From Octopus vulgaris (taxonomy: Eukaryota), in the NCBI GenBank assembly GCA_951406725.2, contig OX597814.1:17856001-17920000 (forward strand): a stretch of DNA of 64,000 nucleotides, in the 5' to 3' direction. Below the pieces are notes generated by a model. It ran no database searches. It was given only the letters and a program-made list of their open reading frames with translations, and was not told where the DNA came from. Within the stretch, counting starts at the first letter, position 1; every line of letters starts with the position of its first letter. This document shows, piece after piece, positions 11,102-40,871 of this stretch. Both the position numbers and the translations under genes were made by a program.

Positions 11102-12661
11102 TTTGCATATATACACACATACATACAAACATACATACATATCCATACATACACACATACATACATATCCATACATACACACATACATACATATCCATAC
11201 ATACACACATATATATATATACATATGTACATACATAAATATATATAACATTCATATATCCGTCTCGTACTACACACACACACTATTTGCATATATACAC
11301 ACATACATACATACACACATACATACGTATCCATACATACACACATACATACATATCCATACACACATACATATATATATATATATACATATGTACATAC
11401 ATAAATATATATAACATTCATATATATACATACATATATTTATATATACATACATAGTTAGAGTTTCATACTTTTCTTGGAGCAAAAGGACTAAGTTATT
11501 CAATGATTTAACACAAGATTCTTGCTATATTCCGTTTTCTATTTCGTCTTCGTTGTTGCTGTTGTTCCGCCGCTATTTTCCCACCATTCTTATACTACCA
11601 CTACCACCACCACCACAAACACCGCCACTCCCACCTCTTATTTTGCTGCTTTGATGTTTCCTATTCTTAGTTTTGTTCTTCTCCACTCAACTTTTTATCT
11701 TCCTTTGGCCGGATAAATACCGTAAGAGCTAAGCATTGAGGTCCTTTAAGCAAAGCGCTAAAGCATACAAACATTCATATTGTCATGTTCCCGTGGTAGA
11801 TACTATAAATAAATTGTGAGATCCAGTGCTTCCATTACGTGTCGAAATTGTGATGATTTTTGGTCGAAAAATGACGAGGAATTGAATAAGTCCGTGTCAA
11901 TTGTTTGTGTCTTTCACGTATTCTGTATGTTCCTTAGTTGACCCCTGTACCACATTGTATTGTTATAATATAATATATTTATCGCTACTGTTACAAGTAG
12001 ATTAGAGCAGGGTAGATTTGATCAAAAGCAGATACTTATCAAAATTGATTCAATAATCGTAGTGTATCAGTGTCCATATAGCTGAAGGTGACTTCTTTTT
12101 TTGAAAGCTATATTGTCTAAAGTAAGAAATGTTTGACAAATATTTCTTGCAGATCCAAAGGCCAGCTGAAGGTTTCCTTCGCTGTTTTGACGCAAATGAA
12201 ATGAAAGAGCTGATGGTCATAATTGAAATAGGATGCGTTATACGGATTACCGGAAACCCGACTCAGTGTTCATAATCATCGTAACTCTAGATAAATTTTT
12301 TTGAAATATTTTTCGCCATATGTCAGTTTATTACTGTGACTAAGCTCTAAGGCTTCATCTAAAAGAACACAAATAGCTAATGCTTGGTTGAAGAGAGAGT
12401 GAGGGAGTGAGAGATGGGGTGGTTATTGTACTGGAAAATTCTCTTTCTCTCCGAATTCATTGTCATCATCAATCCAGATGTCATGTTACGATTTGTTTCT
12501 CTAATAAATCTATGTCATCGCCTTTTCTATTATACTCCATTATTTCCATCCAATATGTCCAATGTGGGTTCACCGATGTTACGCATCTGGACATCTGTTG
12601 CTCTGTCTCTCTCTCTCACTCTCTCACCGACTATCTCACCCACTCATTCTCTCTTTATCCG

Positions 12662-26125: not shown

Positions 26126-26220
26126 GTGGGGTTTTTTTTTTAATGTTTACGCTTAGGTTAAGTCCGAATCAAACAGATCTTTTTATCATGGTCACTCTAT
26201 GATCGCACATCGAATTCGGT

Positions 26221-26391
26221 GATGACCCCCCCATTAATTGTTGATCCTTCTTTGGATGACCCCCCATTAATTGTTGATCCTTCTTTGGATGACCCCCCAT
26301 TAATTGTTGATCCTTCTTTGGATGACCCCCCATTAATTGTTGATCCTTCTTTGGATGACCCCCCATTAATTGTTGATCCTTCTTTGGATGA
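26221..26391. repeat. 33-bp minisatellite, 5 near-identical units
   Basis: Unit GATGACCCCCCATTAATTGTTGATCCTTCTTTG; the first unit has one extra C; no spacers. Confidence 0.97.
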
Positions 26392-26478
26392 ATAAATTAC
26401 CAATGCTGCATGTGCAATTTCACCCTTAGACAAGATGTGTGGATTTTCTCAGTTGCACACAAAGCTTTTGGTTTTCTC

Positions 26479-37398: not shown

Positions 37399-38408
37399 AT
37401 ATATATATATGAATCGAGACAACGATGAATTCACTCGTGGGGTCATTCAATTGCCTAGAAATAGCATCAGCCAAATATCTACCATATACCTCTATCACTT
37501 AAAAAAAAAGAAAAATTAAGGACTCTTTGGATGATATCGTCCGTCGTGATCTACGTAAAAAAAAAAAGTGCGGACACGGTTAGAAAACATTTCATCATGT
37601 CTTCTCCATAACGTTATTAGCAATTTTCTTGATTGAGGAATCTCTAAGAAATGCTAAATTTTTGTAGCGCTTTTATGGACCCACTTCTGTAATCTTCATC
37701 TCAGAAGGAGGTGATTGTAAAATGAATGGTAAACAATAGGAACATATTCTTAGATGGAATTCAATGTTGTATTGTTATGTTCGAAACCTTCCGTTTTAAA
37801 CTTTGCCTCTTGTCAGTGTCAATGACATAAATACCAGTATTGCTAGAAATAACTGCTAAAATCCCTTAAATCTCTTTTATTATTCTAAAAGTTGTATATA
37901 TTGGAAATCTTTAATCAAAAGGTCAGCTTGGTTCAGATTGACCTGGGTCTAAACAACAACTGGTAAAAAAAAAAGAAGGATTATTCTTTACCAAAGGGTC
38001 TTTTGCACTCTCAAAATCGTCGGCTTGCCCCTATTCACACTTCTGGCCTGCCTGGCAGGGACACGAAATGAGTTGCTTTGTGTATGCCTTTTTTTTTCAG
38101 CAGTCAGAAAAATCTGACCTACCTATATAATTATTCACTGTGGATCAATAAAGAGATAATAGAATCTCTTACACGAATCATTTGTAATTATTGATTAAGC
38201 ATTTCATTTGTATTTATTGATTCAGCATTTCATTGCCTTTGAAAATCCTTAATTGTGATTCGTCTATTCTGTTTACCAAATTAACATATTAAAATGACAT
38301 TTTTTTTTCCGTTTTCAGTTAACCTAAATTTTCCTTAAAACAATCATAACTTATATTTTATTTTCTTTCTCCCCCTTTTCTTTTTTTTTTTTTTTTACTT
38401 ACATGTAG

Positions 38409-38432
38409 CGTACCAGGCCAGTAGTTACGCAG
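38409..38432 (+). CDS. Lhx1/5: Candidate 24-nt phase 1-1 microexon of Lhx1/5, encoding x-YQASSYA-G
   Basis: T-rich tract with no AG between 38319 and the acceptor, acceptor TAG 38406-38408, exon CGTACCAGGCCAGTAGTTACGCAG, consensus donor CAG|GTAAGT at 38433. Read in phase 1 it is stop-free and joins the next exon in frame (G+GT = Gly, then SDIDDD). Confidence 0.65.
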
Positions 38433-38698
38433 GTAAGTCTGGCGCGTGTTCCTTTTCTACTTAACGTATACCTTTTCATCATTTTTTCCCCTGCTGTTGA
38501 AAACAATCGTTACCGGGTGAATCTTGTCTGGTGTATTAAAAGACTCGGTCCTTAAACTATCTGATATTGATGTTTCATATTTGGTTCTTGAAGATTTATT
38601 AATATTTTCACTGAATCGTTGTAACCGAGAGGGCACTAGATGGCCAGCCTTAAACAAGTCAGTAGATGGAACTTTGTTATCAGTGTTTCACCTTTGTA

Positions 38699-39046
38699 AA
38701 AGTAAAAGTAAAGACCCCCTTCGGTCATGAATGACCATGGGATTGCACCTAGAAAGTTACCCTCCTAGACACAAGTCCGGGCACGGTTGTTTATGGAAGG
38801 CCAGCAGTCGCCCATGCATACCAGCCTCCCCTCTCCACGCCACCAGTGTTATCCAAGGGAAAGACAACAGTCGATACAGCTTGGCACCAGTGACGTCGCA
38901 ACTCATTTCTACAGCTGAGTGAACTGGAGCAACGTGAAATAAAGTGCCTTGCTCAAGAACACAACACCCAGCCCGGTCCGGGATTCGAGCTCACAACCTC
39001 ACGATCGTAAGCTCGACGCTCTAACCACTGAGCCATGCGCCTTCAC
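38699..39046 (-). mobile_element. tRNA-derived SINE family D with (TTTTAC)n tail and about 12-bp flanking duplication
   Basis: Minus strand GAAGGCGCATGGCTCAGTGGTTAGAGCG...GAGCTCGAATCCC...CTTGAGCAAGGCACTT; TTCACCTTTGTA at 38687-38698 and 39042-39053 (overlapping the head). Confidence 0.88.
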
Positions 39047-39332
39047 CTTTGTAGACTACATTATATACAGCACTGAATTCACTCAAATTTGGAACTAATT
39101 TATTTTAAGTGTAAATAGGTAGAATAAATAAAAAGCAAAATAAAAATCAGGGTAGTCAACAGGAGAAAGAATTTGCAATGATAAGAATATAATTCATATC
39201 AAGAGTAAGGATAGGTGAATAAAAGGGCTTTATCAGTCTGATTCCAACAAGGTGTTACGAGGATTTTACCTGAAGTTTTGGATAAACTACCCAACTGGTA
39301 ACGGGTCACGCTAGATATATAAATACTCAATA

Positions 39333-39715
39333 CAGTACAGTGGTTAGTCGACCATTGTACTTGCTGTGATGTACAGAGCGTATATAGTGGAAAATTAAGA
39401 TAAACACCAATATAAATATTGAGTTCTTACATATATTTCCCCACTCCAGTTATTTGGAACTCGGTATTGGATGTTCCAAGTGTATTTGGATGACTATGCA
39501 CAATCAACAGAATGCAATGAATCCATAGCGGTTAGAGGTTTTTAAAATGCACTCGGAAAAATCCACTGCTGAGTTCCAAATAACAACAATGGTGAAACAT
39601 ACGTAGGAAGTAAATATTTATGCTGGTGTTTATCTTAATTTTCCATATACATAGGCTCTGTATATCACAGCTAATAACACTACTGAATACAGTGGTCGAA
39701 TTAACTATTGTACTG
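39333..39715. mobile_element. Fold-back / MITE-like element with imperfect inverted arms of about 155-170 bp
   Basis: Termini TA|CAGTACA ... TGTACTG. Exact inverted blocks include tggaaaattaagataaacacca / tggtgtttatcttaattttcca and gttatttggaactc / gagttccaaataac; spacer about 60 nt. Confidence 0.8.
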
Positions 39716-39794
39716 GAAGCTGACAGGATGACGATAGTCTACACAGAGTTCTAAACGTTTACAGTAGCAGTCATTCATCTAAGTGTACACACAA

Positions 39795-39885
<91 letters not shown>

Positions 39886-40287
39886 CGTGTGTTCTTTTCA
39901 ATCATATTTTTAATAAGAAATTGAGGTACGTTGTCCACGAATTGTTTAGTTTAACTTTCTTCAAAATGATGGATTCAGCATAGACTATTTATTTCCCTCA
40001 TACATATCTTTTAATCCAATATTTCCTCGCTATTATTTATAGATTTATCTACTTCGAGTTCAGCCGTTAAAAACGAGTTATATTTATTTTTCTCAACTGG
40101 TTAATCAGTATGTTTCCCTTCAAATTCTCTCTTATTTTCATTCACTCTCTCTCTCTCTCTCTCTTTACCTCACTATTAAATTTTCCAAGAGTCTCGTTTT
40201 CCTTCACTTTGTTTTTTTTTATATTTATTTGTTGTTATTGTTGCTTTGTTTACATACCTATTTTTTTTTCTGTCTGTCTCTCGCTAG

Positions 40288-40871
40288 GTTCAGATATTGA
40301 TGATGACGTCGATCTGGATAGCAGTTTAGACAACACAGGCAACGTATCAGACAGAGATTTCAGCATGGATGGAGACAACAGTCGGGATAGTAAAGAAAAT
40401 GTCGGTCCGCCTTGCCTAGGTAATAACAGTATTATGAACAATACCTGCAACACTAACAGCAATTCGTCGATGGCGCCCAATTCCGTTTCGTCCAACATTG
40501 GCAGCCCAGACGATGTGAAAGACGATACAATTATTAACTTTTCAAACAGTGTTGATAGTCTTTCAAATTCGGGGACATTACCCATAAACAAAAATAACAA
40601 CAGCAATGCTAATGGGACCACGAACATTATTACTAATAACATCACGAACAAAAACAATAACACAGTCAAGGACAACAGCAAAGACTCTACGAACATTTCA
40701 GCAGATCACTCCGAAAGCAACATGGGTGCTAAACGACGGGGACCACGTACGACCATCAAAGCGAAACAATTAGAAACACTAAAAGCGGCTTTCGCTGCCA
40801 CCCCTAAGCCAACACGGCATATAAGGGAACAACTGGCACAAGAAACGGGGTTGAACATGCGTGTTATTCAG
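40288..40871 (+). CDS. Lhx1/5: Internal coding exon of a LIM-homeobox gene of the Lhx1/5 (Lim1) family: acidic/Asn-rich linker plus homeodomain residues 1-46
   Basis: Translation ends [49 protein letters not shown], the Lhx1/5 homeodomain as I recall it. Polypyrimidine tract and acceptor ...tctcgctag (AG 40286-40287, phase 1). Donor CAG|GTGAGG at 40872, the usual LIM-HD intron position just before VWFQN. 584 nt, no stops. Confidence 0.95.

Follow-up and report, generated by a model that had tools for sequence, protein, structure and literature searches.

A 24-nt cassette microexon behind the second LIM domain of octopus Lhx1/5, likely conserved within and restricted to cephalopods

Does a 24-nt segment buried in a long intron of an octopus LIM-homeodomain gene serve as an exon and, if it does, how is it used, how far is it conserved and what would its inclusion change in the protein? 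The window analyzed here, a 64,000-nt stretch of Octopus vulgaris DNA, holds this segment, the homeobox exon of the gene and the intron that separates them:

40288–40871, plus strand: homeobox exon, 584 nt, starting in phase 1 and ending in phase 0, present in every isoform seen
38433–40287, plus strand: intron between the microexon and the homeobox exon, 1855 nt, defined by a transcript joint

The homeobox exon encodes the conserved acidic motif, the Asn/Ser-rich linker and homeodomain helices 1–2 of Lhx1/5. It matches the Pfam Homeodomain family (E 9.9e-11) over the first 45 of 57 positions and is 100% identical to the O. vulgaris Lhx1-like protein P0001 (CAI9714823.1); its best named matches are Lhx1 and Lhx5, which places the gene in the Lhx1/5 LIM-homeodomain subfamily. 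LIM domains were found in proteins P0002 and P0123, and their exons lie outside the window: motif scans and tblastn detected neither LIM exons nor the WFQN exon within it, so the flanking introns must exceed about 38 kb and about 23 kb. The 64 kb thus contain just two exons of the gene, with positions 1–38408 and 40872–64000 free of others. Rfam returned no matches across the window. An abundant interspersed repeat occupies about 38705–39046 of the 1855-nt intron, with thousands of matching contigs in all four sequencing runs considered below; a comparison of the window with itself (E 1e-5) showed it to be single there. A tandem array at about 26172–26396 comprises some five 33-nt units, which translate to an 11-residue repeat.

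The microexon and the signals that surround it are as follows:

38409–38432, plus strand: 24-nt cassette microexon, phase 1-1, from its downstream joint in runs X6 and X14 and from protein isoforms
38319–38406, plus strand: AG-free zone of 88 nt upstream of the microexon, from the sequence
38319 and 38347, plus strand: branch-point-like candidates TTAAC and TAAC, respectively, inside the AG-free zone, from the sequence
38361–38396, plus strand: unbroken polypyrimidine tract of 36 nt, its end 10 nt short of the acceptor AG
38406–38408, plus strand: 3′ splice site TAG, from the sequence, a contig start at 38409 and the 8-residue gain in proteins
38433–38438, plus strand: 5′ splice site GTAAGT (consensus CAG/GTAAGT), from the sequence and a GT..AG joint

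An earlier note, made from the letters of this DNA, had described an AG-free stretch of about 88 nt, a TAG acceptor, a 24-nt exon and a CAG/GTAAGT donor, all of which are confirmed in the sequence. Its account of the coding phase is likewise upheld: the exon fits the phase-1 start of the homeobox exon and reads (A)YQASSYA(G) without stops, and use of the AGs inside it would leave 16, 11 or 8 nt. Inclusion inserts AYQASSYA between ...HSKFS and GSDIDDD... in the protein. When both strands of the window were scanned for an AG-free stretch of at least 40 nt, a pyrimidine content of at least 70%, a GTRAG donor and an exon length of 3–51 nt, six candidates passed; only 38409–38432 is both 3–27 nt long and frame-keeping, and its pyrimidine fraction (0.87) is the highest of the six. 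The 88-nt AG-free zone by itself is unremarkable and not beyond chance: among the gaps separating the 3039 plus-strand AGs of the window, 105 are at least 88 nt long, and the homeobox exon, the single other exon available for comparison in the window, has an AG-free zone of 94 nt. Another frame-keeping candidate (11671–11721, plus strand; 51 nt, open in phase 1, with a 151-nt AG-free zone and a GTAAGA donor) was set aside as probably due to chance, being absent at this junction from the retrieved cephalopod-clade proteins.

Transcript evidence was sought in four runs, representing four studies, out of 24 listed; they were searched as Logan contigs and taken by guess to be RNA. A search for the junction had been proposed in the earlier note, and a joint from 38432 to 40288 with GT..AG ends is present in X6 and X14, two of the four runs and from two studies, and absent in X1 and X4. 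In these latter runs, the contigs carrying the homeobox exon extend 230 and 706 nt upstream of it, with zero depth on the microexon and on the intron bin before 40288; X1 and X4 thus appear to skip the microexon, a reading made from depth, as the upstream contig letters were not displayed. The start at 38409 was deduced from the length of the contig side and from bin depth, and the proteins gain exactly 8 residues; the upstream junction is evidenced by the proteins alone. Contigs of this kind record presence only, with rare variants dropped, and neither inclusion levels nor tissues are readable from them. The runs show that either form can be the assembled one.

Among the protein models, AYQASSYA is included in O. 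vulgaris CAI9714823.1, and CAI9714822.1 (P0121) lacks exactly these eight residues. The microexon is present in P0001, P0002 and P0191 and skipped in P0121 and P0123; the pairs P0001/P0121 and P0124/P0123 each differ by exactly 8 amino acids at this site. An identical AYQASSYA occurs in Argonauta hians GAB1597523.1, and a MetaClust entry starts with the same peptide. In the O. bimaculoides RefSeq annotation, the gene is split into separate fragments, and those seen do not carry the microexon. Alternative forms were added to the O. vulgaris genome annotation through PASA updates using RNA-seq and Iso-Seq (PMC10700109), and CAI9714823.1 and CAI9714822.1 presumably derive from this annotation, to judge from a matching 225-Mb scaffold. 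The microexon is therefore not hidden or missed by annotation, as had been supposed, because the gene models of O. vulgaris and Argonauta already contain it. What does stand, on the junction and the isoform pairs, is that Lhx1/5 has a real, frame-preserving microexon, included or skipped, in the stretch that separates its LIM domains from its homeodomain. At 24 nt (within the limits of 3–27 nt), with canonical splice sites, inclusion in transcripts and alternative skipping, it belongs to the microexon class.

Turning to its distribution, nine Logan proteins from a divergent relative cluster with the Argonauta protein. Four of the nine (13 contigs) carry a counterpart peptide, AYQSGSFA, and five (28 contigs) skip it; two of them, P0124 and P0123, are identical save for the eight residues. 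The Octopus and Argonauta peptide and that of the relative share 5 of 8 residues plus a Y/F exchange, with Y-Q, S and the aromatic-Ala end kept. This is no better than the background of the linker, in which Octopus and Argonauta share 144 of 147 positions and either shares 107 of 145 (74%) with the relative. A tree of the shared region (16 rows) united Octopus, Argonauta and the divergent relative in a clade (support 100/100) and set the relative outside Octopus plus Argonauta with moderate support (86/79). A first tree, in which the relative grouped with Argonauta, was rejected since its Octopus row carried a different C-terminal isoform. The relative, represented by protein sequences, is likely a decapodiform; protein searches retrieved no named squid, cuttlefish or Nautilus orthologs. 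The insert is absent from all 41 non-cephalopod mollusc proteins retrieved, a set that includes isoforms and close kin and consists of gene models of a kind that can miss microexons. A degenerate scan for the exon plus donor of metagenome contigs returned a sole match (L001), which was discarded as chance: it has no pyrimidine tract and sits in an apparently bacterial coding region. Conservation in related species, on which the earlier note had staked its exon, is borne out by the identical peptide in Argonauta and the counterpart in the relative. Together, these comparisons suggest that the cassette microexon is likely conserved within, and restricted to, cephalopods. Octopuses and decapodiforms are estimated to have split about 275 Mya (PMC9068888); should the relative prove to be a decapodiform, inclusion and skipping would have been retained side by side for that long.

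A second conserved alternative event of this gene lies outside the window, where three C-terminal ends follow ...HPG (P0001, P0002, P0121 and P0123–P0131). The short end of 22 residues shows no difference among Octopus, Argonauta and the divergent relative and did not appear in any other mollusc row of the alignment; the long, ancestral-type end has visibly diverged between P0121 and P0127. This event may outrank the microexon in interest.

Within the protein, the insert is placed after the last helix of LIM2: similarity to the solved LIM pairs of Lhx3 and Lhx4 stops at residue 123, and the insert starts at 125. It carries no charge and sits beyond the folded domains, leaving both intact. Its inclusion changes the spacing between the last zinc-ligand motif of LIM2 (CKxDY) and the acidic motif SDx[ED][DE] from 7 to 15 residues. 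Of the 41 mollusc proteins from outside the cephalopods, 39 have a spacing of 7–8 residues, the other two, both from Littorina, having 11; it is also 7–8 in six of seven further proteins (from a brachiopod, a phoronid, two annelids and two others, with a nemertean at 18). In AlphaFold models, the end helix of LIM2 spans residues 115–127 with the insert versus 115–120 without it (pLDDT near 50), and the linker is disordered (pLDDT below 50). When LIM1-2 and the acidic linker peptide were modeled as a complex, the score was 0.12. Length changes at the junction of LIM2 and linker also occur elsewhere (P0153, P0180, P0047, P0199/P0200, P0206/P0201, P0208/P0182): relative lengths are +4 in Littorina, +11 in the nemertean Tubulanus, about +14 in the onychophoran Euperipatoides and +1 in oysters, mussels and scallops, and isoform pairs differing by 1 residue were found in amphioxus and scorpion. 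Small splice variants may have arisen at this junction repeatedly.

The features of the locus invite comparison with neural microexons of the SRRM/eMIC program, to which the earlier note had linked it. Targets of SRRM3/4 are 3–27 nt long, with a strong donor and a long pyrimidine tract away from the AG (10.1101/2024.09.17.613571). The octopus exon shares this size, frame preservation, the CAG/GTAAGT donor (judged by consensus) and a displaced tract, 36 nt long and 10 nt off the AG; it lacks the nearby UGC and the CUAAY branch point that are enriched in fly eMIC exons (10.1101/2021.02.24.432780). From the tract to the AG there is one UCUC and no UGC; the closest TGC begins 175 nt upstream of the exon, in keeping with the earlier observation that no UGC lies directly upstream, and no CUAAY, Rbfox or QKI motif occurs within 300 nt on either side, just scattered YCAY. 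At 88 nt, moreover, the AG-free zone falls short of the 94 nt found for the homeobox exon. In its available text, the vertebrate study reports UGC in just 79% of one SRRM3/4-dependent class and 74% of another and does not treat it as strictly required (10.1101/2024.09.17.613571); since roughly one in four vertebrate targets lacks the motif, the octopus exon could be under eMIC control even without it. In the journal version of the fly study (PMC8797185), cephalopods are named in references only. A neuron-specific microexon under the Srrm234 eMIC program, a reading in which the regulator differs and the protein effect may not, is therefore a serious but unlikely account: the link is weak, the eMIC or neural reading is unsupported, and we do not assign the exon to that program.

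Of the remaining explanations, a tolerated, loosely controlled exon would owe its partial inclusion to strong splice signals, its eight small residues mattering little in a disordered linker. The low pLDDT of that linker, the conservation of the peptide at about the linker background and the junction length variants in several phyla, the 1-residue pairs of amphioxus and scorpion included, are consistent with this. Against it stand the equal length, position and alternative status of the exon in a relative whose linker has diverged by 26%, the conserved Y-Q, S and aromatic-Ala end, the alteration of a spacing that nearly all the mollusc proteins (39 of 41) hold at 7–8 residues, and the variation between runs in the assembled form; we judge it improbable, a shade more so than eMIC control. 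The possibility of a pseudo-exon, a chance pattern never spliced in, might draw on the frequency of equally long AG-free runs in an AT-rich, repeat-rich window and on the guessed RNA nature of the four runs, but is refuted by the GT..AG joint in two runs and by the peptide, which two genera have in their gene models and a third lineage in its Logan proteins, and retains only a vanishing probability. We instead favor, with a probability of roughly 0.5, a 24-nt cassette exon of octopus Lhx1/5, placed after LIM2 and with both forms present also in the divergent, likely decapodiform relative, that acts as a regulated spacer retuning partner contacts or activity rather than DNA binding. Under this proposal, the exon would have been gained in the cephalopod lineage within the intron after the LIM2 exon, and its recognition would rely on a consensus donor and, close to the end of an intron of more than 38 kb, on a long pyrimidine tract, with inclusion probably depending on the sample. 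The insert may extend the end helix of LIM2, as the low-confidence model suggests, and the spacer could change the way in which partners or kinases engage the LIM pair and the acidic segment, both folded domains staying intact.

Small in-frame inserts that toggle transcription factors are known from other families. The MEF2 beta exon also encodes 8 amino acids; its insert is acidic and activating, whereas that of Lhx1/5 is uncharged. The closest published case is that of the squid Pax-6 splice variants (PMC3942700), which likewise add in-frame exons to a developmental homeobox factor and are, in the available text, described as having been acquired in coleoids and as missing from a bivalve. 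The squid Pax-6 exons encode 20 and 40 amino acids and have measured expression patterns (PMC3942700), whereas the Lhx1/5 microexon encodes 8, lies after LIM2 and is known from sequence. Pax6(5a), with 14 amino acids, is a similarly small in-frame toggle, but sits inside a DNA-binding domain, unlike the Lhx1/5 insert outside the folded domains (PMC3942700). Lhx9a/b, like Lhx1/5, is a LIM-homeodomain factor diversified by alternative splicing; there, as described in the accessible text, homeodomain helix 3 is lost and the C-terminus changed, whereas the Lhx1/5 isoforms keep both domains (PMC9310833).

A literature search outside subscription papers found no published description of the microexon, its conservation or its regulation. 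In its available text, a review on how the coleoid brain develops names Lhx solely in a reference to Lhx2/9 (PMC11191162), and the main text of an O. bimaculoides preprint (10.64898/2026.09.05.749416) contains no occurrence of "Lhx", its supplements being a place where the exon may be listed. With the class of event well known and the exon already in gene models, the surprise is modest.

LIM-homeodomain factors, acting in complexes linked by Ldb, determine neuron subtypes (PMC9310833). A more ambitious and, in our estimation, doubtful extension is that a microexon without UGC arose in the coleoid ancestor and doubles a spacing kept at 7–8 residues across lophotrochozoans, and that octopus and squid neurons switch it by cell type, changing the partner complexes of Lhx1/5 and so building splicing control into the LIM code of cephalopod brains. 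As an octopus microexon without UGC, the exon would offer a test case for eMIC dependence. As a lineage-restricted, conserved on/off insert beside partner-binding domains, it would provide a concrete and cheap test of splicing-based diversification of cephalopod developmental regulators, a route proposed for squid Pax-6.
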